Both the position numbers and the translations under genes were made by a program. The notes below the pieces were generated by a model. That model was not told where the DNA came from, did no database searches, and saw only the letters and a program-made list of their open reading frames with translations. From Escherichia coli (GTDB taxonomy: Bacteria; Pseudomonadota; Gammaproteobacteria; Enterobacterales; Enterobacteriaceae), in the NCBI RefSeq assembly GCF_044324785.1, contig NZ_CP172127.1: a stretch of DNA of 64,000 nt. One strand, 5' to 3'. Position 1 is the first letter of the stretch, and each line of letters opens with the position of its first letter. Of the stretch, positions 1-64,000 are shown piece after piece.

Positions 1-204
1 CGTGTCGTCATCACCTACGCGACCAATAAAATCAACCTGCGCCCCCAGCCTTGCCGCCGCAACCGCTGCCGTCGCCGCTGGCCCGCCACCAACTTCCGTA
101 TAATTTCTCGCCACGTATTTACCGCTCTCCGTCGGTAATCCTTCCACGTAATAAATACGATCCATCACGGTAATACCTACACAAGCAACACGAATCATGG
201 TCAT
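1..204 (-). CDS. yihV: PfkB-family sugar kinase (6-deoxy-6-sulfofructose kinase), N-terminal 68 codons; gene runs off the window start
   Basis: Reverse-strand ATG at 204; translation MTMIRVACVGITVMDRIYYVEGLPTESGKYVARNYTEVGGGPAATAAVAAARLGAQVDFIGRVGDDDT is open to the window edge; divergent from yihU as in the E. coli cluster. Confidence 0.75.
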   Translation of the reverse strand, partial: MTMIRVACVGITVMDRIYYVEGLPTESGKYVARNYTEVGGGPAATAAVAAARLGAQVDFIGRVGDDDT

Positions 205-365
205 TCCTTAAGCATTTTGGGATGCGTTCATTTTAATTTCACCAATTGTTTAAAAAGTGACGGCTGTCAATTTTTTGACGATAAATTACAAATACGATCA
301 AAAACAGACAAGCAAAGCATGTCATAAATGACAAAAAGTGACATCACTGTATTCAGGAGAGGGTT

Positions 366-1262
366 ATGGCAGCAATCGCGTTTATCGGTTTAGGACAAAT
401 GGGTTCGCCAATGGCGAGCAATTTATTGCAGCAAGGGCATCAACTTCGCGTCTTTGATGTGAACGCCGAAGCTGTGCGGCATCTGGTAGACAAAGGTGCG
501 ACTCCCGCCGCCAACCCGGCGCAGGCCGCTAAAGATGCCGAATTTATCATTACCATGTTGCCGAATGGCGATCTGGTGCGCAGCGTGTTGTTCGGTGAAA
601 ACGGCGTTTGCGAAAGCTTATCTACCGATGCGCTGGTCATCGATATGTCGACCATCCATCCGCTGCAAACCGATAAATTGATTGCCGATATGCAAGCCAA
701 AGGCTTCAGCATGATGGATGTTCCGGTAGGCCGTACTTCTGCAAATGCCATTACCGGTACTCTGTTACTGCTGGCTGGCGGCACCGCTGAACAAGTTGAA
801 CGCGCCACACCGATCCTGATGGCGATGGGCAGTGAGTTGATCAACGCGGGCGGCCCGGGCATGGGGATCCGCGTTAAGCTCATCAACAACTACATGAGCA
901 TCGCGCTCAATGCGCTTTCGGCAGAAGCCGCCGTTTTGTGCGAAGCCCTGAATCTTCCCTTCGATGTTGCCGTCAAGGTGATGAGCGGCACCGCCGCCGG
1001 TAAAGGCCACTTCACCACTTCCTGGCCAAACAAAGTCCTCAGCGGGGATCTTTCTCCCGCCTTCATGCTCGATCTTGCCCATAAGGATCTTGGTATCGCC
1101 CTTGATGTCGCCAACCAGCTGCATGTGCCAATGCCGCTGGGGGCCGCCTCACGGGAGGTTTATAGCCAGGCGCGCGCAGCGGGTCGCGGTCGCCAGGACT
1201 GGTCCGCCATTCTGGAACAGGTCCGTGTCAGTGCCGGGATGACTGCCAAAGTAAAAATGTAA
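366..1262 (+). CDS. yihU: 3-sulfolactaldehyde reductase (beta-hydroxyacid dehydrogenase family)
   Basis: 298-aa ORF with N-terminal Rossmann motif ([10 protein letters not shown]); recognised protein; synteny. Confidence 0.9.
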
Positions 1263-1285
1263 CGACTGGATAAAGGAATAAATGA

Positions 1286-2164
1286 ATGCATAAGTACACC
1301 ATCAACGACATTACGCGCGCATCGGGCGGTTTTGCCATGCTGGCGGTCGATCAACGCGAAGCCATGCGCATGATGTTTGCCGCGGCTGGGGCACCCGCTC
1401 CAGTAGCCGATAGCGTTTTAACTGATTTCAAAGTTAACGCTGCAAAGGCCCTCTCGCCTTACGCCTCCGCCATTCTGGTGGATCAACAGTTCTGTTACCG
1501 CCAGGTGGTTGAGCAAAACGCAATTGCCAAAAGTTGCGCCATGATTGTCGCCGCCGATGAGTTCATTCCTGGCAACGGTATTCCGGTAGATAGCGTGGTC
1601 ATTGACCGCAAAATCAACCCGCTACAAATCAAACAAGACGGTGGCAAAGCCTTAAAACTGCTGGTGCTGTGGCGTAGCGATGAAGATGCGCAGCAACGTC
1701 TGAATATGGTGAAAGAGTTCAACGAACTGTGCCATTCAAACGGTCTGGTGAGCATCATTGAGCCGGTTGTTCGCCCGCCGCGTCGTGGCGATAAATTCGA
1801 TCGCGAACAAGCGATCATTGATGCCGCCAAAGAGCTGGGCGACAGTGGCGCTGACCTCTACAAAGTTGAAATGCCGCTTTATGGCAAAGGTCCGCAACAA
1901 GAGCTTCTCAGTGCTTCACAACGTCTGAATGACCATATCAATATGCCGTGGGTGATCCTCTCATCCGGTGTCGACGAAAAACTGTTCCCGCGTGCCGTAC
2001 GCGTGGCAATGACAGCGGGTGCATCGGGCTTCCTGGCTGGTCGTGCCGTCTGGGCATCGGTTGTCGGTTTACCAGACAACGAGCTGATGCTGCGTGACGT
2101 TTGCGCACCGAAATTACAACAACTTGGCGATATCGTCGACGAAATGATGGCTAAACGCCGTTAA
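1286..2164 (+). CDS. yihT: 6-deoxy-6-sulfofructose-1-phosphate aldolase
   Basis: 292-aa ORF, recognised protein, 24-bp spacing after yihU. Confidence 0.88.
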
Positions 2165-2179
2165 GATGGGGATATAAAA

Positions 2180-3421
2180 ATGAAATGGTTTAACACCTTA
2201 AGTCACAACCGTTGGCTGGAACAGGAAACCGATCGCATCTTTGATTTTGGTAAAAATTCCGTAGTACCGACCGGATTTGGCTGGTTAGGCAATAAAGGGC
2301 AAATCAAAGAAGAGATGGGCACCCATCTGTGGATCACCGCTCGTATGTTGCACGTTTATTCTGTTGCTGCGGCGATGGGTCGACCTGGCGCTTACTCGTT
2401 GGTTGATCACGGTATCAAAGCCATGAACGGCGCACTGCGCGATAAAAAATATGGCGGTTGGTATGCCTGCGTGAATGACGAGGGCGTGGTGGATGCCTCC
2501 AAACAGGGCTATCAACACTTCTTTGCTCTGCTGGGTGCCGCCAGCGCGGTCACAACGGGTCACCCGGAAGCACGCAAGCTGCTCGATTACACCATTGAAA
2601 TTATCGAGAAATACTTCTGGAGCGAAGAAGAGCAGATGTGCCTTGAGTCCTGGGACGAAGCCTTCAGCAAAACCGAAGAATATCGCGGTGGCAATGCCAA
2701 CATGCACGCGGTAGAAGCCTTCCTGATTGTCTATGACGTCACGCATGACAAAAAATGGCTGGATCGCGCCATTCGCGTGGCTTCCGTGATTATCCACGAT
2801 GTCGCCAGAAATAATCATTATCGCGTTAACGAGCACTTCGATACCCAGTGGAATCCGCTGCCGGATTACAACAAAGATAACCCGGCGCACCGCTTCCGCG
2901 CGTTCGGAGGTACTCCGGGCCACTGGATCGAATGGGGCCGTTTAATGCTGCACATCCACGCTGCCCTGGAAGCCCGCTTCGAACAGCCGCCTGCCTGGCT
3001 GCTAGAAGATGCCAAAGGTCTGTTTAACGCCACCGTGCGCGATGCCTGGGCACCCGATGGCGCGGACGGGATTGTTTATACCGTTGACTGGGAAGGAAAA
3101 CCGGTGGTCCGCGAACGTGTGCGTTGGCCTATCGTCGAAGCGATGGGTACGGCCTACGCGCTCTACACCGTCACCGGCGATCGCCAGTATGAAACCTGGT
3201 ATCAGACATGGTGGGACTACTGCATTAAGTACCTGATGGACTATGAAAATGGTTCCTGGTGGCAGGAGCTGGATGCGGACAATAAGGTCACCACCAAAGT
3301 CTGGGACGGCAAACAGGATATTTATCACCTGCTGCATTGCCTGGTGATCCCGCGTATCCCGTTAGCGCCAGGCCTGGCTCCGGCAGTTGCGGCGGGTCTG
3401 CTGGATATTAACGCGAAATAA
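2180..3421 (+). CDS. yihS: sulfoquinovose isomerase (AGE-fold)
   Basis: 413-aa ORF, recognised protein, synteny. Confidence 0.88.
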
Positions 3422-3487
3422 CTGACTAAAAAAACGACATATCAGGCTGCACGCCGGGTATGTCGTTATTCAATAAAGGTACCTCGT

Positions 3488-4390
3488 ATGCAAATCACCA
3501 ACATGCATTGCAGTGGACAGACCGTTTCACTTGCCGCGGGGGATTATCACGCGACTATCGTGACGGTTGGTGCTGGTCTGGCTGAATTAACCTTTCAGGG
3601 TTGTCATTTAGTCATCCCGCACAAACCCGAAGAGATGCCGCTGGCGCATCTGGGTAAAGTGCTTATTCCGTGGCCGAACCGGATCGCCAACGGCTGTTAC
3701 CGCTATCAGGGGCAGGACTATCAGTTACCCATTAATGAACATAGTTCAAAAGCCGCTATTCACGGGCTGCTTGCCTGGCGTGACTGGCAAATTAGCGAAT
3801 TAACCGCCACCAGCGTTACCCTGACAGCTTTTCTGCCGCCCAGTTACGGCTATCCGTTTATGCTGGCTTCACAAGTTGTTTATTCGCTCAATGCTCGCAC
3901 GGGCCTTTCCGTTGAGATCGCAAGCCAGAATATTGGTACTGTGACCGCACCTTATGGTGTGGGTATTCATCCTTATTTAACCTGTGACTTAACGCCTGTT
4001 GATGACTATCTTTTCCAGCTTCCGGCAGAACAGGTTTATGCCGTCGATGAGCACGCAAATCCGACAACGCTTCACCACGTTGATGAGCTGAATTTAAATT
4101 TCACGCGGGCGACAAAAATAGCCGCGACAAAAATCGACCACACCTTTAAAACCGCTAATGATCTGTGGGAAATGACCATTACCCATCCACAGCATTTGCT
4201 TTCGGTGAGCCTCTGTTCCGATCAACCCTGGGTGCAGGTTTATAGCGGTGAAAAATTACAGCGTCAGGGACTGGCAGTTGAACCTATGAGTTGCCCGCCT
4301 GATGCGTTTAATTCAGGTATCGACTTATTATTACTGGAACCAGGAAAAACGCACCGCCTGTTTTTTAATATTCACGGGCAGCACAATTAA
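3488..4390 (+). CDS. yihR: aldose 1-epimerase family protein (sulfoquinovose mutarotase)
   Basis: 300-aa ORF, recognised protein, synteny. Confidence 0.85.
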   Translation: MQITNMHCSGQTVSLAAGDYHATIVTVGAGLAELTFQGCHLVIPHKPEEMPLAHLGKVLIPWPNRIANGCYRYQGQDYQLPINEHSSKAAIHGLLAWRDWQISELTATSVTLTAFLPPSYGYPFMLASQVVYSLNARTGLSVEIASQNIGTVTAPYGVGIHPYLTCDLTPVDDYLFQLPAEQVYAVDEHANPTTLHHVDELNLNFTRATKIAATKIDHTFKTANDLWEMTITHPQHLLSVSLCSDQPWVQVYSGEKLQRQGLAVEPMSCPPDAFNSGIDLLLLEPGKTHRLFFNIHGQHN

Positions 4391-4450
4391 TTTTATTAAG
4401 AAAAGAACGAGATCATTGTTTAGGGTTGTATTTACACAACAGGAAAGATT

Positions 4451-5326
4451 ATGGACTTTTTTACATTATTTACGCCGGACGGGGCCATGGTGGAAACAAG
4501 CGTGGTATGTATCGTTATCGCGTTAATGTTTCTTTATACCTTTGTGGGGATATGCGCGGGATTTGGCGGTGGTTTAACCACTATGCCGCTCGTCACGTTA
4601 ATGCTCCCCGTAAAAATGGCAACTCCGCTCTCGGTGATTGTCGGCACCGCAACCGCCTTGTACGCCACCTGGCTGTCACGTAAAGAAACGGATTGGCGAT
4701 CGGCAATGGTACTGATTATTTTCTCGTTTCTGGGAATACCCGTCGGTTTATATGCGCTGTCGTATTTACCCGACCATTTTATGAAAGTGGGCTTAGGCGG
4801 ATTCCTTATCCTTTACTCGTTTTACAGCATGTTTATTCCTCGCCTGCCGATTTATGACCGTAACTGGATCGCCGCACCTATCGGCGCAGTAGCTGGTGCA
4901 TTAGGTGCGGCGTTCTCAACCAACGGACCGCCGATGGTTATCTACGGTATGCTGCGTAACTTAGGCCCGGCGGCATTTCGCGGCACTTTGAACGCTTTCT
5001 TCACCGCAAACAACATCGCGGTGATCGGCGGGCTGGCAACCAGCGGAATTTTGACTGTCTCTATCTTTAAACTGGTGTTGTTTTGTATTCCCACCATGAT
5101 CCTCGGTTCACTGGTTGGACAATATGTGCATAAACGCATTTCGGTCAAAGTGTTCCGTGTGATGGTCTTTTTATTGCTGATTGCCTCCGGTTCTATGTTG
5201 ATAAAAGGCGCGCTGGGAATTCCCGCCGCTGCCGCACTTCTGCCTCCGTTTACCTTGTTAGTTATACTGCAACTGGCATTCGGTAAAAAAGTGGCGGCAA
5301 TCCGCCGGGCTGAAGAAAGTAAATAA
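4451..5326 (+). CDS. TSUP / TauE-SafE family (DUF81) polytopic membrane permease; candidate sulfonate or sulfite exporter
   Basis: 291-aa ORF with SD AGGA 6 nt upstream of ATG; multiple hydrophobic helices and the family's Gly-rich motif (GFGGGLTTMPL); function is inferred from family and context only. Confidence 0.8.
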   Translation: MDFFTLFTPDGAMVETSVVCIVIALMFLYTFVGICAGFGGGLTTMPLVTLMLPVKMATPLSVIVGTATALYATWLSRKETDWRSAMVLIIFSFLGIPVGLYALSYLPDHFMKVGLGGFLILYSFYSMFIPRLPIYDRNWIAAPIGAVAGALGAAFSTNGPPMVIYGMLRNLGPAAFRGTLNAFFTANNIAVIGGLATSGILTVSIFKLVLFCIPTMILGSLVGQYVHKRISVKVFRVMVFLLLIASGSMLIKGALGIPAAAALLPPFTLLVILQLAFGKKVAAIRRAEESK

Positions 5327-5431
5327 TCATTATGCGGGTTTTAATTTATACCCGCACACATTCTTTAATTAATGAAACCTGTAATAACAGGATGGCATGA
5401 AATATTAGCTTTATATCTATGGAGATTATTT

Positions 5432-7468
5432 ATGGATACGCCACGCCCACAGTTACCAGATTTTAAATTTCATCATAATAACGACCGTTTTACCCTACGT
5501 TTTCAGGGCCGTCTTATTTTATCCCATAGTAAAGATAATCCTTGTTTATCGATTGGCTCAGGTATTGCGGATATTGATATGTTCCGTGGCAATTTCAGCA
5601 TTAAAGATAAATTGCAGGAGAAGATTGCGCTTACCGACGCTACCGTCAGCCAGTCACCGGATGGCTGGTTAATCCATTTCAGCCGTGGTTCTGACATTAG
5701 CGCCACGCTGAATATCTCTGCCGACGATCAGGGCCGTTTATTGCTGGAACTACAAAACGACAACCATCACCACAACCGCATCTGGCTGCGCCTTGCCGCT
5801 CAACCAGAGGACCATATCTACGGCTGCGGTGAACAATTCTCCTACTTTGATCTGCGCGGCAAACCGTTCCCGCTATGGACCAGTGAACAAGGCGTTGGTC
5901 GCAACAAGCAAACCTATGTCACCTGGCAGGCCGACTGCAAAGAGAACGCGGGCGGCGACTATTACTGGACTTTCTTCCCGCAGCCTACGTTTGTCAGCAC
6001 GCAGAAGTATTACTGCCATGTTGATAACAGTTGCTACATGAACTTCGACTTTAGTGCCCCGGATTACCACGAACTGGCGCTGTGGGAAGACAAAGCAACG
6101 CTGCGTTTTGAATGTGCTGATACATACATCTCCCTGCTGGAAAAATTAACTGCCCTGCTGGGACGCCAGCCAGAACTGCCCGACTGGATTTATGACGGGG
6201 TAACGCTCGGCATTCAGGGCGGGACGGAAGTGTGTCAGAAGAAACTGGACACCATGCGTAACGCGGGCGTGAAGGTTAACGGCATCTGGGCGCAGGACTG
6301 GTCCGGGATCCGTATGACCTCTTTTGGCAAACGCGTGATGTGGAACTGGAAGTGGAACAGCGAAAACTATCCGCAACTGGACTCACGTATTAAGCAGTGG
6401 AACAAAGAGGGCGTTCAGTTCCTTGCCTATATCAACCCGTATGTCGCCAGTGATAAAGACCTCTGTGCCGAAGCAGCAAAACACGGCTATCTGGCAAAAG
6501 ATGCCTGTGGCGGTGACTATCTGGTGGAATTCGGCGAGTTCTACGGCGGCGTTGTCGATCTCACTAATCCGGAAGCCTACGCCTGGTTCAAGGAAGTGAT
6601 CAAAAAGAACATGATTGAACTCGGCTGCGGCGGCTGGATGGCTGACTTCGGCGAGTATCTGCCCACCGACACTTACCTGCATAACGGCGTTAGCGCCGAA
6701 ATTATGCATAACGCCTGGCCCGCACTGTGGGCGAAGTGTAACTACGAAGCCCTTGAAGAAACGGGCAAGCTCGGCGAGATCCTTTTCTTTATGCGCGCCG
6801 GTTCTACCGGTAGCCAGAAATACTCCACCATGATGTGGGCGGGCGACCAGAACGTCGACTGGAGTCTGGACGATGGCCTGGCGTCGGTCGTCCCGGCGGC
6901 GCTGTCGCTGGCAATGACCGGACATGGCCTGCATCACAGTGACATTGGCGGTTATACCACCCTGTTTGAGATGAAGCGCAGCAAAGAGCTGCTGCTGCGC
7001 TGGTGCGATTTCAGCGCCTTCACGCCGATGATGCGCACCCACGAAGGCAACCGCCCCGGTGACAACTGGCAGTTTGACGGCGACGCGGAAACTATCGCCC
7101 ATTTTGCCCGTATGACCACCGTCTTCACCACCCTGAAACCTTACCTGAAAGAGGCCGTCGCGCTGAATGCGAAATCCGGCCTGCCAGTTATGCGCCCGCT
7201 GTTCCTGCATTACGAAGACGACGCGCAGACCTACACCCTGAAATATCAGTACCTGTTAGGCCGCGACATTCTGGTCGCTCCGGTGCATGAAGAAGGCCGT
7301 AGCGACTGGACGCTCTATCTGCCGGAGGATAACTGGGTCCATGCCTGGACGGGAGAAACCTTCCACGGGGGAGAAATAACCGTTGAAGCGCCCATCGGCA
7401 AGCCGCCGGTCTTTTATCGCGCCGATAGCGAATGGGCGGCACTGTTCGCGTCGTTAAAAAGCATCTAA
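5432..7468 (+). CDS. yihQ: sulfoquinovosidase, glycoside hydrolase family 31
   Basis: ORF track starts at 5372; the in-frame ATG at 5432 gives the 678-aa protein beginning MDTPRPQLPDF that I recognise. Confidence 0.9.
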   Translation: MDTPRPQLPDFKFHHNNDRFTLRFQGRLILSHSKDNPCLSIGSGIADIDMFRGNFSIKDKLQEKIALTDATVSQSPDGWLIHFSRGSDISATLNISADDQGRLLLELQNDNHHHNRIWLRLAAQPEDHIYGCGEQFSYFDLRGKPFPLWTSEQGVGRNKQTYVTWQADCKENAGGDYYWTFFPQPTFVSTQKYYCHVDNSCYMNFDFSAPDYHELALWEDKATLRFECADTYISLLEKLTALLGRQPELPDWIYDGVTLGIQGGTEVCQKKLDTMRNAGVKVNGIWAQDWSGIRMTSFGKRVMWNWKWNSENYPQLDSRIKQWNKEGVQFLAYINPYVASDKDLCAEAAKHGYLAKDACGGDYLVEFGEFYGGVVDLTNPEAYAWFKEVIKKNMIELGCGGWMADFGEYLPTDTYLHNGVSAEIMHNAWPALWAKCNYEALEETGKLGEILFFMRAGSTGSQKYSTMMWAGDQNVDWSLDDGLASVVPAALSLAMTGHGLHHSDIGGYTTLFEMKRSKELLLRWCDFSAFTPMMRTHEGNRPGDNWQFDGDAETIAHFARMTTVFTTLKPYLKEAVALNAKSGLPVMRPLFLHYEDDAQTYTLKYQYLLGRDILVAPVHEEGRSDWTLYLPEDNWVHAWTGETFHGGEITVEAPIGKPPVFYRADSEWAALFASLKSI

Positions 7469-7513
7469 TCACGTCCGCCCGTGGGGAAACTCACGGGCAA
7501 AGGGAGAACAACG

Positions 7514-8899
7514 ATGAGTCACATCACAACGGAAGATCCGGCTACTTTACGTCTGCCCTTTAAAGAGAAACTCTCTTACGGTATCGGCGATCTGGCCTCT
7601 AACATCCTGCTGGATATCGGCACGCTTTATCTTTTGAAGTTTTATACCGACGTTCTGGGGCTGCCCGGCACCTATGGCGGCATTATCTTTTTGATTTCAA
7701 AGTTCTTTACCGCCTTTACCGATATGGGTACCGGCATTATGTTGGATTCCCGACGCAAGATCGGTCCAAAAGGCAAATTCCGCCCTTTTATTCTGTATGC
7801 ATCATTCCCGGTCACCCTGTTGGCGATCGCCAACTTTATCGGCACACCGTTTGATGTCACCGGTAAAACGGTGATGGCCACCATCCTGTTTATGCTTTAC
7901 GGACTGTTTTTCAGCATGATGAACTGCTCCTACGGCGCAATGGTCCCCGCTATTACTAAAAACCCCAACGAACGTGCATCGCTGGCAGCATGGCGTCAGG
8001 GTGGCGCTACATTGGGCCTGCTGCTGTGTACGGTGGGATTCGTGCCGGTTATGAATCTTATCGAAGGTAATCAGCAACTTGGCTATATCTTCGCCGCCAC
8101 GCTGTTTTCACTGTTCGGCCTGCTGTTTATGTGGATCTGCTACTCGGGCGTGAAAGAGCGTTATGTCGAAACCCAACCTGCAAATCCGGCGCAAAAGCCT
8201 GGCCTGCTGCAGTCTTTCCGCGCGATTGCTGGTAACCGCCCACTATTCATTCTGTGTATTGCCAACCTCTGCACTTTAGGGGCGTTTAACGTCAAGCTCG
8301 CCATTCAGGTCTATTACACGCAGTACGTGCTTAACGATCCCATCCTGTTGTCGTATATGGGATTTTTCAGCATGGGCTGTATTTTCATCGGCGTGTTCCT
8401 GATGCCTGGTGCAGTCAGACGTTTTGGTAAGAAGAAGGTCTATATCGGCGGCCTGCTGATTTGGGTGCTGGGCGATCTGCTCAACTATTTCTTTGGCGGC
8501 GGCTCGGTCAGCTTTGTGGCGTTCTCCTGCCTGGCGTTCTTCGGCTCAGCGTTTGTTAACAGCCTGAACTGGGCGCTGGTTTCTGACACCGTCGAGTACG
8601 GCGAGTGGCGCACCGGTGTGCGTTCGGAAGGTACGGTCTACACCGGCTTCACTTTCTTTCGCAAAGTGTCTCAGGCGCTGGCTGGTTTCTTCCCCGGCTG
8701 GATGCTGACGCAAATCGGCTATGTGCCAAACGTGGCGCAGGCTGACCATACCATCGAAGGTTTACGCCAGCTGATCTTCATCTACCCAAGCGCACTGGCG
8801 GTAGTCACCATTGTGGCGATGGGTTGCTTCTACAGTCTGAACGAGAAAATGTACGTCCGCATTGTTGAAGAAATAGAAGCCCGTAAACGCACGGCATAA
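7514..8899 (+). CDS. yihP: GPH-family sugar:cation symporter
   Basis: ORF track starts at 7481; likely start ATG 7514 (MSHITTEDP...); 12-TM transporter, paralogous to yihO. Confidence 0.85.
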   Translation: MSHITTEDPATLRLPFKEKLSYGIGDLASNILLDIGTLYLLKFYTDVLGLPGTYGGIIFLISKFFTAFTDMGTGIMLDSRRKIGPKGKFRPFILYASFPVTLLAIANFIGTPFDVTGKTVMATILFMLYGLFFSMMNCSYGAMVPAITKNPNERASLAAWRQGGATLGLLLCTVGFVPVMNLIEGNQQLGYIFAATLFSLFGLLFMWICYSGVKERYVETQPANPAQKPGLLQSFRAIAGNRPLFILCIANLCTLGAFNVKLAIQVYYTQYVLNDPILLSYMGFFSMGCIFIGVFLMPGAVRRFGKKKVYIGGLLIWVLGDLLNYFFGGGSVSFVAFSCLAFFGSAFVNSLNWALVSDTVEYGEWRTGVRSEGTVYTGFTFFRKVSQALAGFFPGWMLTQIGYVPNVAQADHTIEGLRQLIFIYPSALAVVTIVAMGCFYSLNEKMYVRIVEEIEARKRTA

Positions 8900-10202
8900 A
8901 TAATAAACAACGCCCTGCGGGGCGTTATAAGGAGTGATTATGTCTGACCATAATCCACTGACATTAAGACTGAATCTGCGGGAAAAAATCGCCTATGGCA
9001 TGGGCGACGTCGGTTCGAATTTAATGCTTAGCATCGGCACTCTGTATCTCCTCAAATTTTATACCGATGAATTAGGGATGCCTGCTTACTATGGCGGGAT
9101 TATCTTTCTGGTAGCGAAGTTTTTTACCGCGTTTACCGATATGCTCACCGGATTTTTACTCGACTCGCGGAAAAATATTGGGCCTAAAGGCAAATTTCGT
9201 CCCTTTATTTTATATGCAGCGGTTCCGGCGGCGTTAATTGCAACGCTCCAGTTTATCGCCACCACTTTTAGTTTGCCGGTTAAAACGACGATTGCCACCG
9301 CGCTGTTTATGATGTTTGGACTTTCATACAGTCTGATGAACTGCTCGTATGGCGCGATGATCCCGGCAATTACCAAAAACCCCAATGAGCGCGCGCAGCT
9401 TGCGGCTTACCGCCAGGGTGGTGCAACCATAGGGCTATTGATTTGTACCGTGGCGTTTATTCCGTTGCAGTCGCTTTTTTCTGACTCCACCGTCGGTTAT
9501 GCCTGTGCGGCACTTATGTTCTCCATTGGCGGCTTTATTTTTATGATGCTGTGCTACAGAGGCGTCAAAGAGCATTATGTGGACACAACGCCAACCGGAC
9601 ATAAAGCCAGTATTCTCAAATCATTTTGCGCGATATTTCGGAATCCGCCATTGCTGGTTTTGTGCATTGCTAACCTGTGTACCCTGGCGGCATTTAATAT
9701 CAAACTGGCGATTCAGGTCTATTACACCCAGTATGTGCTGAATGATATTAACTTATTGTCGTGGATGGGATTCTTCAGTATGGGATGCATCCTCATCGGC
9801 GTATTGCTGGTGCCATTAAGCGTAAAATGTTTTGGTAAAAAACAGGTTTATTTAGCTGGCATGGTGCTGTGGGCGGTGGGGGATATCCTGAATTATTTCT
9901 GGGGAAGTAACTCTTTCACTTTCGTCATGTTCTCTTGTATCGCCTTTTTTGGCACGGCCTTTGTAAACAGCCTGAACTGGGCACTGGTGCCAGATACCGT
10001 AGATTACGGTGAATGGAAAACCGGTATTCGTGCCGAAGGTTCTGTTTATACCGGTTATACCTTCTTTCGTAAAATTTCTGCCGCACTTGCTGGCTTCTTG
10101 CCAGGCATTATGCTGACGCAAATCGGTTATATTCCCAACATCGCGCAGGTGATGCTGCCAACTTACTGATTTAGTGTATGATGGTGTTTTTGAGGTGCTC
10201 CA

Positions 10203-10478
10203 GTGGCTTCTGTTTCTATCAGCTGTCCCTCCTGTTCAGCTACTGACGGGGTGGTGCGTAACGGCAAAAGCACCGCCGGACATCAGCGCTATCTCTGCTC
10301 TCACTGCCGTAAAACATGGCAACTGCAGTTCACTTACACCGCTTCTCAACCCGGTACGCACCAGAAAATCATTGATATGGCCATGAATGGCGTTGGATGC
10401 CGGGCAACTGCCCGCATTATGGGCGTTGGCCTCAACACGATTTTACGTCACTTAAAAAACTCAGGCCGCAGTCGGTAA
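10203..10478 (+). CDS. insA: IS1 InsA
   Basis: 91-aa [27 protein letters not shown]..., recognised. Confidence 0.95.
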
Positions 10479-10900
10479 CCTCGCGCATACAGCCGGGCAG
10501 TGACGTCATCGTCTGCGCGGAAATGGACGAACAGTGGGGCTATGTCGGGGCTAAATCGCGCCAGCGCTGGCTGTTTTACGCGTATGACAGTCTCCGGAAG
10601 ACGGTTGTTGCGCACGTATTCGGTGAACGCACTATGGCGACGCTGGGGCGTCTTATGAGCCTGCTGTCACCCTTTGACGTGGTGATATGGATGACGGATG
10701 GCTGGCCGCTGTATGAATCCCGCCTGAAGGGAAAGCTGCACGTAATCAGCAAGCGATATACGCAGCGAATTGAGCGGCATAACCTGAATCTGAGGCAGCA
10801 CCTGGCACGGCTGGGACGGAAGTCGCTGTCGTTTTCAAAATCGGTGGAGCTGCATGACAAAGTCATCGGGCATTATCTGAACATAAAACACTATCAATAA
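10397..10900 (+). CDS. insB: IS1 InsB (made as InsAB' transposase by -1 frameshift at the A6C motif near 10453..10463)
   Basis: ORF in -1 frame overlapping insA; TTAAAAAACTC slippery motif present. Confidence 0.9.
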
Positions 10901-11186
10901 GTTGGAGTCATTACCCATCGCGCAAAGTGATGCGACATTACAGGGTTTGCGTCAGCTCATTTTTATCTGGCCTTGTGCACTGGCAATTATTGCTGCATTG
11001 ACGATGGGATTCTTTTACACACTCAATGAAAAACGGTTTGCGTTGATTATTGAGGAAATCAACCAACGCAAAAATAAAGAGATGGCGACAGAAGAAAAAA
11101 CGGCTTCCGTAACGTTATAAATGTCAATAGCCGCTATTTCCATCCTGGTGGGTGGCGGCCTCCCTACGTTTAAAAATGGACTTATT

Positions 11187-11879
11187 ATGAAAAATATTAA
11201 TGCAATAATTTTATTATCTTCTCTGACCTCTGCCTCAGTATTCGCTGGCGCATACGTCGAAAACAGGGAGGCATATAATCTCGCCTCCGATCAGGGCGAG
11301 GTTATGCTACGTGTGGGTTATAACTTCGATATGGGCGCGGGTATTATGTTAACCAATACCTACACCTTTCAGCGAGAAGATGAACTAAAACATGGATATA
11401 ACGAAATTGAAGGTTGGTATCCTTTATTTAAACCAACCGATAAATTAACCATCCAGCCCGGTGGCTTAATTAATGACAAGAGTATCGGTTCGGGTGGTGC
11501 CGTTTATCTGGATGTTAACTACAAATTTACTCCGTGGTTTAACCTGACGGTGCGTAATCGCTATAACCATAATAATTACAGCTCTACAGATTTGAACGGC
11601 GAATTGGATAATAACGACACCTATGAAGTTGGCACCTACTGGAACTTTAAAATAACAGAAAAATTTTCCTATACATTTGAACCACATTACTTCATGCGAG
11701 TGAATGACTTTAATAGTAGCAACGGGAAAGATCATCATTGGGAAATCACTAACACCTTCCGTTACCGTATTAATGAACACTGGCTTCCTTATTTCGAATT
11801 GCGCTGGTTAGACCGCAACGTCGAACCGTACCACCGCGAGCAAAACCAGATCCGTATCGGGACGAAGTATTTCTTCTGA
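11187..11879 (+). CDS. ompL: outer membrane porin OmpL
   Basis: ORF track starts at 11121; likely start ATG 11187 (MKNINAIILLSSLTSASVFA signal peptide), C-terminal aromatic residue typical of OM beta-barrels. Confidence 0.85.
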   Translation: MKNINAIILLSSLTSASVFAGAYVENREAYNLASDQGEVMLRVGYNFDMGAGIMLTNTYTFQREDELKHGYNEIEGWYPLFKPTDKLTIQPGGLINDKSIGSGGAVYLDVNYKFTPWFNLTVRNRYNHNNYSSTDLNGELDNNDTYEVGTYWNFKITEKFSYTFEPHYFMRVNDFNSSNGKDHHWEITNTFRYRINEHWLPYFELRWLDRNVEPYHREQNQIRIGTKYFF

Positions 11880-11885
11880 TGTGAA

Positions 11886-11966
<81 letters not shown>

Positions 11967-11969
11967 TAA

Positions 11970-13235
11970 TTAAGCTTCAGCCGCCAGCATCTCTTTCTTA
12001 CGTTGGCTAATACGCTTAACCAGCATTACGGAAACCACCGCACCACAGAATGCGAAGCAGGCCATAATGCCAAACACGATTTTGTAGCCAATAATCCCCG
12101 GATTTAAATCCAGAATGTAGCCATACAGACTGAAGCAGAACATCGCCGGGGCGTAACCAATAAAGCTACCCAACGCCATCGCCGCGCCTGTTTTATTTTC
12201 AGCAATTTTTGCTTCGCCGATAGGTGCAAAAAATACGGCTCGCTGTGTAAAGACTATCGCGCCAAAGCCCAGCGTACATGCCATCCCTAAATAGACCGGC
12301 ATACTTTCGTGCGGCAGCATAATCAACAGTACGAGCGCAGCGGTACTGATGATAAAGGTGTAACATAGATATTTACTCGGCGATTTCAGGATCTTATCTG
12401 AAATCATGCCACCAATCGGTCCACCAATCATTTTCAGACAGTATTGGTTAATGATGCCGTAAGCCCCCACCAGCGCAACGGGCAATAGATAGATGTTTTT
12501 CAGGAATGGAATGAAGAATGTCAGGCCACAGTAAACCGCGTAAACGAAGAAGACGTTGAAAGCGATAAGCCAGATAGTTTTGTCTTTCAGCACCGAGGTC
12601 ATACTGGTGTTTTTCGATGCTCCGTCTTCTTTTTTCACCTCAACGGACGGTGCCTCTTCTTTGTCATTCAGAACAAAGAAAATGATAATGCCTACGGCAA
12701 TCACAATAAGGGAATAGAACCAGATGCCTGCTTTAAAACCCAATAAGCCACTGCCAAACCAGGTAAATACTGCCAACGCAGAAAATGCCACCACGGTATC
12801 GACAATGCCACGCCCTGTTTCGAAGAAGCCAAACAACCGACCTTGTTGTTCGCTATTGCCTAATCGACTTACCGACTTGAGCAAGACCGGCCAGTTCATC
12901 ATGTCGCAAGTAACGCCAAATAGCGCCCAGACAAAGAGGATGCCCCAATACCCCGGCATTGTCGTCAAATAAACACCCAGTAATCCTGTCGCAATGAGTG
13001 AGAATGACATGGTGTATCTGCGCGGTAGTTTATCGGCAAAATAAATAGACAGAAAAAAGCCCACTGTCGTGACAAATGAGTTTACCGACATAGCATTACC
13101 AATTTGACCATTGGTCAAATGGAAATATTCCTGCATCGGGATATAAAACGCATCTTTCAGCGACGGTAATTTATAAATTGTACCGCCACACAATGTTAAT
13201 AGACTAAATAACGCCCATTTCTTTTTCGTGAGCAT
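11970..13235 (-). CDS. yihN: MFS transporter
   Basis: 421-aa ORF, hydrophobic, recognised, synteny. Confidence 0.88.
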   Translation of the reverse strand: MLTKKKWALFSLLTLCGGTIYKLPSLKDAFYIPMQEYFHLTNGQIGNAMSVNSFVTTVGFFLSIYFADKLPRRYTMSFSLIATGLLGVYLTTMPGYWGILFVWALFGVTCDMMNWPVLLKSVSRLGNSEQQGRLFGFFETGRGIVDTVVAFSALAVFTWFGSGLLGFKAGIWFYSLIVIAVGIIIFFVLNDKEEAPSVEVKKEDGASKNTSMTSVLKDKTIWLIAFNVFFVYAVYCGLTFFIPFLKNIYLLPVALVGAYGIINQYCLKMIGGPIGGMISDKILKSPSKYLCYTFIISTAALVLLIMLPHESMPVYLGMACTLGFGAIVFTQRAVFFAPIGEAKIAENKTGAAMALGSFIGYAPAMFCFSLYGYILDLNPGIIGYKIVFGIMACFAFCGAVVSVMLVKRISQRKKEMLAAEA

Positions 13236-34452: not shown

Positions 34453-35208
<756 letters not shown>

Positions 35209-35312
35209 ATCAGCATACTTGTCCTTAGCCTTCTGCAGTGACAGCTGGTAGTACAGCGTGCTTCTGGCCAGCCCTGCAGCCTTTAACAGGTCAGACTGGC
35301 AGTGTCCGCACC

Positions 35313-35843
35313 TCAGGCTCCGGATGACTTTCGTTTTTTCTCCAGCTCCTGGCGCTTTTTTTCCAGGAGATGCTCCTGCATGGCTTTCAGATATGCATTT
35401 TCTGCGCGAAGATAACGCAGCTCATTCTTCATCTCTTCCGGCGTCATGTTTGCCTCGTTTTCATGGGTATCATCAGAACGGGTCATGCTTTTCTCCTTCC
35501 TGCGCCTGATAAAGGCCTCATTACCAGATTTGCGGTAGCCTTTTATCCAGTTTTTAACCGTGTTGTGGCTGGGAATGTTAAACCGGGCAGCTACCCGGGG
35601 TAGAGACTCAGAATGCCCGAGAGCATAAAGAACCACGCAAAGTTTATCTTCAGGAGAATAGCTACGCTTGTGTCTGCAATCCAGTGCCCGAGGACCGTGA
35701 AGAAGAAAAAGATTAATCCAGTGTGAGAGGCTGGTGTGAGAAAGTTGAAAGAGTTTTGCCGTAGAAATGATGCCTGCATGACCGGCCAGGTAATGATTTA
35801 CAGCGGCAAGTTTTACTTCAAATGAATGTTTCATAAACTGCAC
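35313..35843 (-). CDS. IS3-family transposase OrfA (HTH, leucine zipper)
   Basis: 176-aa ORF inside the IS; 3' end carries the AAAAAAG frameshift heptamer. Confidence 0.85.
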   Translation of the reverse strand: MQFMKHSFEVKLAAVNHYLAGHAGIISTAKLFQLSHTSLSHWINLFLLHGPRALDCRHKRSYSPEDKLCVVLYALGHSESLPRVAARFNIPSHNTVKNWIKGYRKSGNEAFIRRRKEKSMTRSDDTHENEANMTPEEMKNELRYLRAENAYLKAMQEHLLEKKRQELEKKRKSSGA

Positions 35844-35915
35844 CTTCAGATGTCAGATTGTGTCCAACATTTGGGGTGCAGTTCAGCCAGCGTCGCATCC
35901 GGCATTTTTTTCACC

Positions 35916-35945
35916 AACGCAAAAAGGCCATCCTGACGGATGGCC
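35916..35945 (-). terminator. rrn operon terminator T2-like hairpin (GGCCATCC..GGATGGCC + U-run)
   Basis: Closely resembles the rrnB T2 sequence as I recall it. Confidence 0.7.
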
Positions 35946-36082
35946 TTCTGCTAAATTTGATGCCTGGCAGTTTATGGCGGGCGTCCTGCCCGCCACCCTC
36001 CGGGCCGTTGCTTCGCAACGTTCAAATCCGCTCCCGGCGGATTTGTCCTGGTTGGGAGAGCGTTCACCGACAAACAACAGAT

Positions 36083-36124
36083 AAAACAAAAGGCCCAGTC
36101 TTTCGACTGAGCCTTTTGTTTTAT
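36083..36124 (-). terminator. rrn operon terminator T1-like hairpin immediately 3' of 5S rRNA
   Basis: AAGGCTCAGTCGAAAGACTGGGCCTT hairpin with flanking A/U runs. Confidence 0.75.
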
Positions 36125-60393: not shown

Positions 60394-61206
60394 ATGGCAA
60401 CAACACAACAATCTGGATTTGCACCTGCTGCATCGCCTCTCGCTTCGACCATCGTTCAGACTCCGGACGACGCGATTGTGGCGGGCTTCACCTCTATCCC
60501 TTCACAAGGGGATAACATGCCTGCTTACCATGCCAGACCAAAGCAGAGCGATGGCCCACTGCCAGTGGTCATTGTAGTGCAGGAAATTTTTGGCGTGCAT
60601 GAACATATCCGCGACATTTGTCGCCGTCTGGCGCTGGAGGGGTATCTGGCTATTGCACCTGAACTTTACTTCCGCGAAGGCGATCCGAATGATTTTGCCG
60701 ATATCCCCACGTTGCTTAGCGGTCTGGTAGCAAAAGTGCCTGACTCGCAGGTGCTGGCCGATCTCGATCATGTCGCCAGTTGGGCTTCCCGCAACGGCGG
60801 CGATGTTCATCGTTTAATGATCACCGGATTCTGCTGGGGTGGGCGCATCACCTGGCTGTATGCCGCGCATAATCCACAGCTAAAAGCCGCGGTGGCGTGG
60901 TACGGCAAGCTGACAGGCGATAAGTCGCTGAATTCACCGAAACAACCTGTTGATATCGCAACCGATCTTAACGCGCCGGTTCTCGGCTTATATGGTGGTC
61001 AGGATAACAGCATTCCGCAGGAGAGCGTGGAAACGATGCGCCAGGCGCTGCGGGCTGCTAATGCGAAAGCAGAGATTATCGTGTACCCGGATGCCGGGCA
61101 TGCATTCAACGCTGATTATCGCCCGAGCTATCATGCCGAATCTGCGAAAGACGGCTGGCAGCGAATGTTGGAATGGTTTAAGCAGTATGGTGGGAAGCGG
61201 AGTTAG
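60394..61206 (+). CDS. ysgA: dienelactone hydrolase family protein
   Basis: ORF track starts at 60328; likely start 60394 (MATTQQSGFAPAAS), 271 aa; nucleophile motif GFCWGG. Confidence 0.88.
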   Translation: MATTQQSGFAPAASPLASTIVQTPDDAIVAGFTSIPSQGDNMPAYHARPKQSDGPLPVVIVVQEIFGVHEHIRDICRRLALEGYLAIAPELYFREGDPNDFADIPTLLSGLVAKVPDSQVLADLDHVASWASRNGGDVHRLMITGFCWGGRITWLYAAHNPQLKAAVAWYGKLTGDKSLNSPKQPVDIATDLNAPVLGLYGGQDNSIPQESVETMRQALRAANAKAEIIVYPDAGHAFNADYRPSYHAESAKDGWQRMLEWFKQYGGKRS

Positions 61207-61598
61207 TTTCCTCTTAGTCTATATTTGAGATGGTGAGTGAACGAGTGCGTTTTGCTGCCATCTCTGTCCCCCAAAAAATAATCAGTATGAATTGATTGGA
61301 GATTACGACTCCGCTATTTGACCTTAAGAAAGTCGGCAAGTCATAGTCATAAATGAGTCTCTTCAATGGCAGACACCTTAGAGATTTACCATCAACTCCC
61401 ATTCACAAACAAACATTAATTATTATCAACACATTCACATTAATTATAAATCATCTCAGACCTTCCTGATAAAAAGATATTAAAGTGAAACATTTTGTTT
61501 TTCACATTTTAGTTCATCACTTTTAGGCGTAAATAAAGGTAAAAAAACAACAATACTATTTCTCTTTCACAAAAGAATTAACAAAAGGTTTTTCAAGG

Positions 61599-62747
61599 AT
61601 GAGTGATATTATTTACCTGAACATAACCGGAGAACAACAAGGATGTATTTCCTCTCGTTGTGGAACGAGCGCATCAATAGGTAATCGCTGGCAGATTGGC
61701 CATGAAGATGAAATCTTCGCGTTCTCGCTCTCTAATAGTATTACGAATACAGGCAAAGGGTCACAATTGCATGGCCTTAGTTTCTGTAAATTGATTGACA
61801 AAAGCTCCCCGTTACTTATTAACGCTATTAACAATAACGAGCAGTTGTTCATGGAGTTTGACTTCTATCGGATCAATAGATTTGGTCGATGGGAGAAATA
61901 TTACAACATTCAACTTCGCGGCGCGCTCTTATCAGCAATCAATCACCTGTTTACTGAGAACAATCTGGATACAGAAACCATCACTGTCAGTTATGAATAT
62001 ATACTCTCCAGGCATCTGATTGCTAATACTGAATTTAGTTATTTGGCATTTCCCGATAACTACAACCGTCTGTTTATACCACGGCCAAAAACTAAAGATG
62101 ATAATGGCCTCAAAACACTCAATAGTAAAGCGGTTGGCAGACTGCTTGCTGCTGGCGGCATATACAATGGGAATATCGAAGGATTCAGGGAAACAGCAAA
62201 CAAGTTGGGAGGAGATGCACCTGCTGGTTACGATCAAGTTATGGATAACAAAGGGTTACTCATCGCTGGTGCTTCAATAGTTGCTGGAGTTGTTCTGGGA
62301 AGAATGAGATTCCCTGATTTGGAATCACTTGAGCATTTCGGAGCCAGAGGAGCAGTATCAGGAAGACCATTTAATCCCGACCTTGCCGGTGGTCCAATAG
62401 AAAATCTGACGACAGATGGCGTAACAATCAACAGGGAAGGTATCGCTATTGTTGAAAAACACATAGCCAGATTTGGTCATGACCCTGTAAATGAAGTGAT
62501 GATCAATAGACTGAAAGACATTGAGAAAGGAAAAATCCCCCCAGAACAAGTAGATCTTAACTTCTATACTCATGAATGTCGGGAATATCAGCGTTACTGT
62601 AATCTTGGTTGGGAAACAGGACAACCTGATGGTGACGCAGGCTATGCACTCTGGAATCATACGCATACTGCTACTCTAGAAGATTATAAACTTAAGGGAG
62701 AACTTAATGACTTATACCACCAGGATGCACTTGACTATGATAACTGA
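61599..62747 (+). CDS. Hcp (T6SS TssD) N-terminal domain fused to an unassigned ~215-aa C-terminal domain; candidate 'extended Hcp' T6SS effector
   Basis: 382-aa ORF in an AT-rich island; residues 1–~165 show Hcp-family signatures (GLSFCKLIDKSSPLL, FDFYRINRFGRWEKYYNIQLRGALLSAIN, ETITVSYEYI); C-terminal domain is my inference from architecture. Confidence 0.8.
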   Translation: MSDIIYLNITGEQQGCISSRCGTSASIGNRWQIGHEDEIFAFSLSNSITNTGKGSQLHGLSFCKLIDKSSPLLINAINNNEQLFMEFDFYRINRFGRWEKYYNIQLRGALLSAINHLFTENNLDTETITVSYEYILSRHLIANTEFSYLAFPDNYNRLFIPRPKTKDDNGLKTLNSKAVGRLLAAGGIYNGNIEGFRETANKLGGDAPAGYDQVMDNKGLLIAGASIVAGVVLGRMRFPDLESLEHFGARGAVSGRPFNPDLAGGPIENLTTDGVTINREGIAIVEKHIARFGHDPVNEVMINRLKDIEKGKIPPEQVDLNFYTHECREYQRYCNLGWETGQPDGDAGYALWNHTHTATLEDYKLKGELNDLYHQDALDYDN

Positions 62748-62982
62748 AACTGAAATTAACGTACTGAAAGTTATGGCTGAGAAAGATATAAACTGGAACT
62801 GGATGAATCTCGATCGCACACTATCTATAAGGCAAATTCCAGGATTCGGTAATGTTGTTAACATTGTTAACAAATTAGCTAACGAGGGTTTGGTTATTAT
62901 TGAGGATAGCGGACATAAGTCTATGCCTCACTACCACGTTACTGAAAAGGGATACAATCTCGTGAAAAGTGAGAATAAATAA
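62707..62982 (+). CDS. small protein (91 aa) translationally coupled to the Hcp-fusion gene; candidate immunity protein
   Basis: Strong SD (AGGGAG, 6-nt spacer) before ATG 62707; overlaps upstream stop by 41 nt; alternative in-frame starts at 62725 and 62737; function inferred from position only. Confidence 0.55.
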   Translation: MTYTTRMHLTMITETEINVLKVMAEKDINWNWMNLDRTLSIRQIPGFGNVVNIVNKLANEGLVIIEDSGHKSMPHYHVTEKGYNLVKSENK

Positions 62983-63130
62983 CGTAGCGTTGATTACTGA
63001 ACAAATCGCTCAGGATTATATTTTGCGAAAAAAATGATTCGGTTATTTCTGTGTCTGAACGGCCGCAGATAGCAAAATGGCTTCCGGTGATGGAAGCCAT
63101 CAGATTATTGGCAAAGTGCGTGTTGTTCAT

Positions 63131-63218
63131 GCCGGATGCGGCGTGAACGCCTTATCTGGCCAACTAAATCTTGAAAATTCAATAAATTGAAGAAATTATG
63201 TAGGCCTGGTATCAGGCA
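63131..63218. repeat. REP palindromic units downstream of metE
   Basis: GCCGGATGCGGCGTGAACGCCTTATCTGGCC and GTAGGCCTGGTATCAGGCA read directly. Confidence 0.75.
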
Positions 63219-63268
63219 GTTTTGCCTCTTTCATCGTACTGCAATTTACAGTGACTCGTTAATACTCA

Positions 63269-64000
63269 TCACCCCCGTCGCAAATTCTGCGCCGCCTGCA
63301 CCATGTTCGCCAGTGCCGCGCGGGTTTCTGGCCAGCCGCGCGTTTTCAGGCCACAGTCCGGGTTTACCCACAGACGCTCTGCCGGAATGCGTTTTGCCGC
63401 TTTCTTCAGCAGGGCTTCAATCCATTCCACGCTCGGTACGTTTGGCGAGTGAATGTCATAGACGCCTGGACCGATTTCATTCGGATAATCAAACTCTTCG
63501 AACGACTCCAGCAACTCCATGTCAGAACGCGAGGTTTCGATGGTGATGACGTCTGCGTCCAGCGCCGCAATCGAATCCATGATGTCGTTGAACTCGCAGT
63601 AACACATGTGAGTGTGGATTTGTGTGTCATCTTTCGCCACGGCGGCGTTGATACGGAAAGCCTCCACGCCCCACTGGAGATAGGCATCCCAGTCGCTGCG
63701 ACGCAGCGGTAAACCTTCGCGCAGTGCCGGTTCATCAATCTGGATGATGCCAATTCCAGCGGCTTCCAGGTCCGCCACTTCATCACGCAGCGCCAGCGCA
63801 ATTTGTTTGGCGATGGTTTCACGGCTGACATCTTCACGCGGGAACGACCAACAGAGTATGGTAACCGGCCCCGTCAGCATCCCTTTCACCGGTTTGTCGG
63901 TCAGCGATTGTGCATATTTCGCCCACTCCACGGTAATTGGTGCCGGGCGGCTAACGTCACCAATGACAATCGGCGGCTTCACGCAGCGGGAACCGTAGCT
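63269..64000 (-). CDS. metE: cobalamin-independent methionine synthase, C-terminal part; gene runs off the window end
   Basis: Reverse-strand ORF open to window end; C-terminal sequence ...[33 protein letters not shown] recognised. Confidence 0.93.

Follow-up and report, generated by a model that had tools for sequence, protein, structure and literature searches.

Introduction

Five types of Hcp protein with C-terminal toxin extensions, Hcp-ET1 to Hcp-ET5, have been described in the Enterobacteriaceae (Ma et al., 2017, Virulence, in the summaries given by PMC6730261 and PMC6099711), and Hcp-ET1 to Hcp-ET4 are reported in a review as antibacterial toxins delivered through a type VI secretion system (T6SS) (PMC6730261). 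Here, a member of this class was analysed in a stretch of 64,000 nucleotides of Escherichia coli DNA (the window; contig NZ_CP172127.1 of assembly GCF_044324785.1), in which an AT-rich island between ysgA and metE carries an hcp-ET gene and, overlapping its 3' end, a small open reading frame (ORF). The island is probably the source of a specialised ('evolved') Hcp effector together with the protein that confers immunity to it.

Two described systems are closest to this locus. Pse3, a protein of 348 aa from Pantoea agglomerans pv. betae, needs an intact T6SS for its secretion and kills prey lacking pse3-psi3, and it is neutralised by the product of the downstream gene, Psi3. Its N-terminal PIX domain (residues 1-140) binds VgrG, residues 141-200 are not needed for secretion, and the activity of its C-terminal domain (residues 213-348) is unknown (Carobbi et al., bioRxiv 2023, 10.1101/2023.07.16.549128, and Cell Rep 2024). 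The other is hcp3 of PCN033 (a pig strain of extraintestinal pathogenic E. coli, ExPEC), an ORF of 1149 bp located far from the T6SS cluster of that strain, which was deleted by Peng et al. (2016, Sci Rep, PMC4882540) and whose product, by their account, showed no homology in its second half.

Results

An Hcp domain joined to a Pse3-like C-terminus

The hcp-ET gene (61599..62747, plus strand; RefSeq name tssD) encodes a protein of 382 aa and is the 'hcp3' of PCN033. All eight primers published for hcp3 of PCN033 matched the window exactly, and primers T11/T12, located at 61599 and 62724-62747, delimit the same frame as the ORF call. The PCN033 protein (WP_001280045.1) differs from that of the window at 3 of 382 residues (99.2% identity), and the genes in PCN033 lie in the order metE, 41-aa ORF, 81-aa ORF, 382-aa tssD, and ysgA. 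The exact 382-aa protein was present on 287 public contigs.

Residues 1-147 (61599..62039, plus strand) form an Hcp/TssD tube-protein domain, as revealed by matches to NCBIfam TIGR03344 (TssD; E 2.9e-36 and 124.9 bits, the curated cutoff being 58.9), to Pfam PF05638 (E 4.9e-14), and to the solved Hcp structure 6a2v of the Protein Data Bank (PDB; E 7.6e-15). A preliminary description, made from the letters of the window without database searches, had already read this domain as Hcp/TssD and proposed the PF05638 search that now returned a match, and it had considered the following ~215 residues unrelated to Hcp. The latter is borne out as well, since the remaining ~215-235 residues matched no Pfam family even at E<=10. 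The PIX-type family PF26362 (DUF8093) was not found in the 382-aa protein, whose N-terminus is Hcp. When PADLOC was run, neither this protein nor the product of the small ORF was matched, and an anti-phage defence system was rejected on this basis.

The C-terminal extension comprises ~235 residues beyond the Hcp domain, well above the 60 aa used to recognise Hcp-ET proteins, and its last ~137 residues are Pse3-like. Residues ~245-382 were 76-77% identical to the C-terminus of 348-aa proteins of Pantoea agglomerans that match Pse3. A separate search with the C-terminal 215 aa, as the preliminary description had suggested, showed that this identity spans both the linker and the toxin domain (96% of the query) and that these proteins are the closest relatives outside E. 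coli. They share with Pse3 the length, the PIX N-terminus, and the domain boundaries, and they share the invariant residues listed below. One of them, WP_122889241.1, was treated as the Pse3 orthologue on the grounds of species, length, architecture, and domain boundaries, its identity with the Pse3 accession of Carobbi et al., WP_064704874.1, being unconfirmed. As a cross-check, the Ralstonia PAAR homologue named by Carobbi et al. appeared among the fold matches (386 aa, 54% identity).

Between the two domains lies a conserved linker or pre-toxin module (residues ~165-240; 62091..62318, plus strand), delimited by alignment with the homologues and reading KTLNSKAVGRLLAAGGIYNGN...GLLIAGASIVAGVVLG. 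It includes a Gly/Ala-rich hydrophobic stretch (residues 219-234; 62253-62300), and the hydropathy maximum of the whole 382-aa protein falls within the module. Nearly the same linker stands between PIX/DUF8093 N-terminal domains and unrelated toxins in the homologues P0118, P0119 (colicin D), and P0120. The equivalent region of Pse3 and Pse4 is dispensable for secretion (bioRxiv 10.1101/2023.07.16.549128). A homologue search with the linker alone gave short fragments only and was uninformative. The linker may possibly aid passage across the inner membrane of the target.

The downstream gene has the position and homology of psi3

The two ORFs of the preliminary description, 61599..62747 (382 aa) and 62707..62982 (91 aa), were both recovered, and they overlap by 41 nt. 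The overlap stands; the length of 91 aa does not. In every homologue of the small ORF, the start corresponds to ATG 62737, the codon also chosen by RefSeq, and the product then has 81 aa. The putative immunity gene is accordingly placed at 62737..62982 (plus strand), with an 81-aa core. The alternative start at ATG 62707 has a better Shine-Dalgarno sequence (AAGGGAG) than ATG 62737, and the first 10 residues that it adds are not conserved.

The small ORF product is 54% identical to the 90-aa product encoded downstream of the Pantoea Pse3 orthologue, at the psi3 position, where the ORF overlaps its toxin gene by 4 bp. Members of the same family (246 homologues) also follow directly after distant toxin homologues with other N-termini, at 27-35% identity. 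Many of these homologues are labelled 'MarR family transcriptional regulator' by NCBI, and RefSeq calls the product of the window either 'MarR family' or hypothetical. The label was rejected: the protein has 81 aa, compared to a MarR domain of ~140 aa with a dimerisation region, and the topology predicted for it, H-H-H-b-b-H, is that of a winged helix alone. Its sole NCBIfam match was to the Lrs14 helix-turn-helix (HTH) family at E 0.021 and 14.8 bits, against a cutoff of 90. An immunity role is favoured over a MarR-type function because of the position of the gene and its covariation with the toxin. No signal peptide was detected in the protein.

An AlphaFold2 model of toxin and immunity protein joined as a toxin-(G4S)6-immunity fusion reached a predicted local distance difference test score (pLDDT) of 87 and a predicted template modelling score (pTM) of 0.80. 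Placement of only one domain (137 of 248 residues) would give a pTM of at most ~0.55; the two parts thus appear to be confidently docked, and on this arithmetic a complex is predicted.

Distribution and predicted fold of the toxin domain

This C-terminal domain (residues ~245-382; 62331..62744, plus strand) is of the type found at the Pse3 C-terminus and is predicted to be all-alpha. An exhaustive search of 1.84 billion representatives located it in 473 clusters, of which 345 scored E<=1e-10. With few exceptions it forms the very C-terminal end of its carrier proteins, which range from 130 to >5000 aa. The carriers include Hcp, PF26362 (DUF8093), PAAR (Ralstonia), giant Rhs/YD-shell proteins, a He_PIG/cadherin-repeat protein, and LysM-containing proteins, as well as many S-type pyocins, 'pyosin/cloacin translocation' proteins, and colicin- or klebicin-like proteins of Pseudomonas, Serratia, Salmonella, Klebsiella, and Pectobacterium. 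PF26362 was equated with PIX because proteins that align to the PIX effectors of Pantoea have it as their N-terminal domain. When the long carriers P0186 and P0124 were scanned for domains, only LysM and SH3-like N-terminal parts were found and no translocation domain, and the association with pyocins therefore rests on P0115 (PF06958) and on the descriptions in the AlphaFold database (AFDB).

A further carrier is A0AAP9IFZ4 of Pectobacterium parvum (507 aa), in which a 2Fe-2S ferredoxin domain is combined with the same toxin domain at the C-terminus. This architecture recalls the ferredoxin-fused pectocins and hints that the toxin domain may be delivered by yet another bacteriocin route.

From an alignment of 46 sequences, the domain was predicted as a compact, mostly helical fold (pLDDT 93). 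A Foldseek search of AFDB50 gave 120 matches at E<=0.001, the best 50 of which all carry the same toxin domain, and a PDB profile search with the toxin domain returned chance-level matches only. The same alignment revealed the invariant residues H288, F292, N298, D319, H325, E326, E329, R332, W352, and H356. One helix face holds H325, E329, and R332, and W352 and H356 share another. This pattern suggests a metal-dependent hydrolase, for which the invariant set of His, Glu, Asp, Asn, and Arg is a candidate active site.

Names that point to characterised nucleases received no support. The labels 'HNH endonuclease' and 'colicin', given by NCBI to gene fragments in other strains, were rejected for want of any profile or fold match: the toxin domain has neither a beta-beta-alpha-metal (His-Me finger) fold nor an HNH or colicin-DNase profile match, and a single member of the 46-sequence family matched HNH_4, weakly (E 0.097). 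Identity with Hcp-ET1 was likewise rejected, given the absence of an HNH/colicin-DNase profile match and the empty ysgA-metE site of strain 55989, which carries Hcp-ET1. The 382-aa protein and its motifs were not found in the supplements of Geller et al. 2024.

For this domain neither a Pfam family nor any structural relative was found in the PDB and the AlphaFold database sample, yet it keeps an invariant His/Glu/Asp/Asn/Arg set and is spread over at least 473 clusters on several kinds of carrier, in each case with a small winged-helix immunity protein. It is conceivable, though we would not call it probable, that it is an enzyme with an unseen fold and possibly a new antibacterial activity. 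On this reading, the shared Gly-rich linker may serve as a so far unrecognised means of entry across the inner membrane of the target.

Two alleles with exchanged toxin tips

The hcp-ET gene was present in ~848 of 5426 complete E. coli genomes (~16%). Two alleles were distinguished, with counts estimated from identity bands and sampled rows. The window-type allele (382 aa, one immunity gene, >=95% identity to the window) occurs in ~123 genomes, including PCN033, VTB96933v, and N3, and the second allele (377 aa, two small ORFs, 80-95% identity to the window) occurs in ~725 genomes, including S88, CFT073, and Nissle-type strains.

Residues 1-288 are 99.7% identical between the alleles, compared to 60.6% for residues 289-382, and the DNA identity falls from ~100% to 63-77% at ~62464. 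The allele-specific toxin tip thus corresponds to 62463..62744 (plus strand). Beyond this point, the 377-aa allele continues with ~325 nt that include its own 85-aa immunity gene, followed by a window-type 81-aa gene. The latter shows 89-96% DNA identity to the immunity gene of the window and is kept as an orphan in B2 strains. These are hallmarks of polymorphic toxins, and they suggest that a toxin tip is swapped together with its immunity gene, older immunity genes persisting as orphans.

In B2-type strains (ECE170, CFT073), hxlB and not ysgA borders the hcp-ET module on the left, with ptsG-like, tkt, and regulator genes beyond it. A second, larger sugar-metabolism island would therefore share this insertion hotspot with the hcp-ET island.

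The island and its surroundings

Alignment with the empty site of strain 55989 (blastn) delimited the island at 61198..63270 (2,073 bp, no strand assigned). The preliminary description had proposed a comparison of the ysgA-metE interval across genomes, and the site was found to be empty in both 55989 and K-12 MG1655, whose metE-ysgA spacers of 38 and 39 bp, respectively, are replaced by the island in the window. K-12 had been described there as having a short spacer with a repetitive extragenic palindromic (REP) element; the short spacer is confirmed, and 39 bp are too short to need such an element, a REP-like piece lying inside the island. Against 55989, the left border lies ~9 nt inside the 3' end of ysgA and the right border coincides with the metE stop codon. 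The last few codons of ysgA (61198-61206) are replaced by the island, the homology to 55989 ending ~9 nt before the ysgA stop.

The G+C content of the island is 39.4% (hcp-ET gene 41.6%, immunity gene 35.8%, upstream spacer 32.7%), in contrast to 54.9% for ysgA, 54.0% for udp, and 57.1% for metE, in agreement with the earlier estimate by eye of 35-40% against ~50%. No meaningful direct or inverted repeats were found at the borders, and no mobility gene was found in the island. The non-coding region upstream of the hcp-ET gene (61207..61598, plus strand) presumably holds the promoter and ribosome-binding site of the operon. A 62-aa ORF on the minus strand of this region (61214..61402) matched no NCBIfam family.

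A Rfam scan of the island gave REP- or small RNA (sRNA)-like matches only, all below threshold. At the metE-proximal end, a REP-like element (63125..63161, minus strand) matched the REP-derived family naRNA4 at 32.1 bits against a gathering score of 59.5, and this piece belongs to a short repeat found in essentially all E. coli genomes. The sRNA ES036/CssrF was matched at 63166-63207 (plus strand) with 33.3 bits against a gathering score of 37.6. In relatives, the stretch between the immunity gene and metE (63125-63207) is annotated as encoding a 41-aa hypothetical protein (WP_001230617.1).

No T6SS structural genes are located within the window, as the preliminary description had noted: bases 1-12500 hold the yih sulfoquinovose genes, and 11915-61197 is colinear with core genes of 55989 except for one insertion sequence (IS) element. 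Otherwise the window consists of core chromosomal genes (yih genes, glnA, polA, a rrn operon, fadBA, ubi and tat genes, and udp). Between mobB and the 5S rRNA gene of the rrn operon, ~1.6 kb (34454-36087) are present that are missing in 55989 and PCN033. Two overlapping minus-strand ORFs in this segment (176 aa and 240 aa) resemble the orfA/orfB transposase pair of an IS3-family element, and PCN033 lacks the IS element at 34.5-35.8 kb of the window, which shows that the window does not come from PCN033.

T6SS apparatus in related strains

The preliminary description had reasoned that delivery would need an apparatus encoded elsewhere, which fits what is found in two strains carrying the same gene. 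Strain N3 (NZ_CP031609.1), which is 99.9% identical over this locus, carries a T6SS cluster at aspV comprising tssB, C, E, F, G, tagH, tssJ, K, dotU, clpV, vasI, tssA, tssM, two Hcp genes, VgrG, and Rhs. A 159-aa Hcp encoded at the end of this cluster is 40% identical to the Hcp domain of the window. The T6SS of PCN033 is reported to be functional (PMC4882540).

Discussion

The combination of an Hcp domain, a Pse3-like toxin domain, and an ORF at the psi3 position supports the extended-Hcp effector-immunity architecture that had been proposed for this locus. We considered that such a protein should function as follows. The N-terminal Hcp domain would be built into the tube of a T6SS whose genes lie elsewhere in the genome, probably sharing rings with the Hcp of that cluster, and the Hcp-borne effector would be fired into neighbouring bacteria. 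There, the attached C-terminal part, consisting of the Gly-rich hydrophobic linker and the 135-aa all-helical toxin domain, would act in the target, most likely as a cytoplasmic metal-dependent hydrolase. The 81-aa winged-helix protein would bind the toxin and shield the producer and its kin. The locus would evolve by joint exchange of the toxin tip and the immunity gene, with old immunity genes left behind as orphans. For this protein, T6SS-dependent delivery, toxicity, cytoplasmic action, nuclease-type activity, and the role of the linker are all points that we infer.

A cytoplasmic and probably nucleic-acid target is suggested by three features taken together: the immunity protein is cytoplasmic, the toxin domain occupies the killing position in pyocin-like proteins, and the pyocin-S translocation domain of such proteins is tied to the import of nucleases into the cytoplasm (PMC9040868). 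In S-type pyocins and colicin-like bacteriocins the toxin domain is found where a nuclease domain would otherwise stand. Nuclease activity is therefore the best guess, one drawn from domain associations.

Several observations weigh against the proposed reading or parts of it. The predicted fold of the toxin matched no known enzyme, and the nuclease assignment comes from domain associations rather than from the fold. The T6SS of the genome that contains the window is represented by proxy, through N3 and PCN033; in N3, moreover, tssA and a VasL-domain gene are annotated as frameshifted, so that its apparatus may not be intact. The number of promoter-like sites in the upstream region (7) was no different from that in shuffled sequence (5.9 +/- 2.5), no promoter was identified, and the scan for promoters and terminators remained at chance level. 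In other strains the hcp-ET gene is often broken, by an internal stop in CFT073 and a split in 2014C-3599, and fragments of it, among them an IS1 fusion in Shigella, are named 'colicin' or 'HNH endonuclease'. The exact immunity protein was found on 713 contigs, compared to 287 for the exact toxin, and this count, together with the frequent breakage, suggests that the toxin may be dispensable. In PCN033, deletion of hcp3 did not markedly reduce the killing of E. coli W3110, Hcp2 being dominant, and it lowered invasion of PK-15 cells, survival and replication in macrophages, and colonisation of mice (PMC4882540).

Part of this evidence would suit an inactive relic, that is, an island kept mainly for immunity against active copies elsewhere, with a Hcp-toxin gene that is silent or whose product is not loaded onto any T6SS in this strain. 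In the relatives examined with a broken toxin gene (CFT073, 2014C-3599, and the Shigella fragments) the immunity genes are intact; immunity proteins outnumber toxins on public contigs; B2 strains retain the orphan window-type immunity gene; and AT-rich DNA with no recognised promoter might, by inference, be silenced. Set against this, the 382-aa frame of the window is intact, it retains every invariant residue of the family, and its product is nearly identical to the PCN033 protein (99.2%). Deletion of hcp3 with complementation gave phenotypes in PCN033 (PMC4882540), and the gene is therefore expressed there. The hcp-ET gene of N3 is also annotated as frameshifted; the N3 assembly has annotated frameshifts in the core genes fhuB and dkgB, so that its frameshifts, including those in hcp-ET and tssA, may be indel sequencing errors. 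For the copy in the window, a relic is accordingly unlikely.

The phenotypes of the PCN033 mutant could also be read to mean that the protein is mainly a host-interaction factor or an alternative structural Hcp, with a C-terminal half that is no antibacterial toxin and a small ORF that encodes a winged-helix regulator. Weaker PK-15 invasion, macrophage replication, and mouse colonisation without a marked loss of W3110 killing (PMC4882540), the RefSeq 'MarR family transcriptional regulator' label, and the weak Lrs14 HTH match all fit this explanation. However, the C-terminal domain shares 76-77% of its residues with the toxic part of Pse3-like proteins, and the antibacterial toxicity of Pse3 has been demonstrated; pyocin-like, Rhs, and PAAR proteins also terminate in this domain; the small ORF always follows directly after the toxin domain, whatever the N-terminus; and the swap of tip plus immunity gene with an orphan immunity gene left behind is a hallmark of interbacterial toxins. 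In addition, W3110 killing may be masked by other effectors, and host and antibacterial roles can coexist. The mutant itself is open to another interpretation, as the published deletion also took out the starts of the small ORF. We regard a mainly host-directed or structural role as improbable.

It was observed that this deletion (61599-62747; primers P10/P11) removes both candidate starts of the immunity gene, 62707 and 62737, and the PCN033 hcp3 mutant has therefore probably lost toxin and immunity protein together.

The NCBI name 'colicin' on fragments, and the fact that S-type pyocin or colicin-like proteins commonly end in the toxin domain, might suggest a diffusible bacteriocin whose release does not depend on the T6SS. 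This is hardly credible, because the N-terminus is an Hcp domain with no receptor-binding or translocation domain, the island has no lysis gene, and the 'colicin' fragments are pieces of broken hcp-ET genes.

The preferred reading, an Hcp-fused effector with its immunity protein, has consequences for published work. The 'Hcp3' of PCN033, also carried by CFT073, UTI89, S88, and Nissle-type strains, is most likely a fused toxin with an immunity protein, beyond a third tube protein, and the virulence phenotypes of hcp3 deletion may need to be re-read because the deletion also took the start of the immunity gene. Counted against the five clans given in the review summaries, the locus would add a sixth toxin type to the Hcp-ET repertoire of E. 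coli. A single uncharacterised killing domain thereby connects delivery by T6SS Hcp fusion, as PIX cargo, and by pyocin-like bacteriocins. In practical terms the locus offers a small but genuine opening, a readily testable E. coli toxin-immunity pair whose toxin fold matches no known enzyme. The novelty of the module itself, which the preliminary description had implied, does not hold, as the Hcp-ET class was published in 2017, the gene was knocked out as hcp3 in 2016, and it is present in ~848 of 5426 genomes.

Comparison with known systems

Displacement of toxins in Rhs and CdiA proteins offers a parallel for the way the locus changes. There too, a conserved delivery part is followed by a sharp break in identity in or before the toxin, and the cognate immunity gene swaps together with the toxin tip while the previous immunity gene stays downstream. 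Unlike in those systems, the scaffold here is Hcp, and the break lies within the toxin domain (~residue 289) and not at a demarcating motif.

S-type pyocins and colicin-like bacteriocins carry the same domain in the C-terminal killing position, after a pyocin-S or cloacin translocation domain, and their partner is likewise a small cytoplasmic immunity protein. They are, however, diffusible and possess receptor-binding and translocation domains, whereas the domain in the window is fused to Hcp; and in contrast to nuclease-type bacteriocins, the killing domain is none of the characterised DNase, rRNase, or tRNase domains.

The island protein and Hcp3 of PCN033 are the same: the 1149-bp ORF and the neighbours coincide, and 379 of 382 residues are identical. 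Peng et al. (2016) treated Hcp3 as a third Hcp and recognised neither a toxin domain nor an immunity gene (PMC4882540). With Pse3/Psi3, the locus shares the linker and toxin domain (76-77% identity), the immunity family (54%), the orphan location, and the overlapping downstream immunity gene. The difference lies in delivery, which would proceed here by fusion to the tube protein Hcp and in Pse3 proceeds by the VgrG-binding PIX domain (Pfam DUF8093).

As in the Hcp-ET proteins, an N-terminal Hcp is followed by a C-terminal toxin extension, the immunity gene lies directly downstream, the locus is situated away from the T6SS cluster, the C-termini are polymorphic, and immunity genes are duplicated or orphaned. 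The toxin differs from those of the five clans named in the review summaries (HNH-DNase, DUF2235 lipase, pyocin S3, colicin-DNase, as well as papain-like peptidase), and it is placed outside them, as far as they are described there, because it has no Pfam match beyond Hcp. The locus is an Hcp-ET with a Pse3-type toxin, and both the kind of weapon and the gene were already known.

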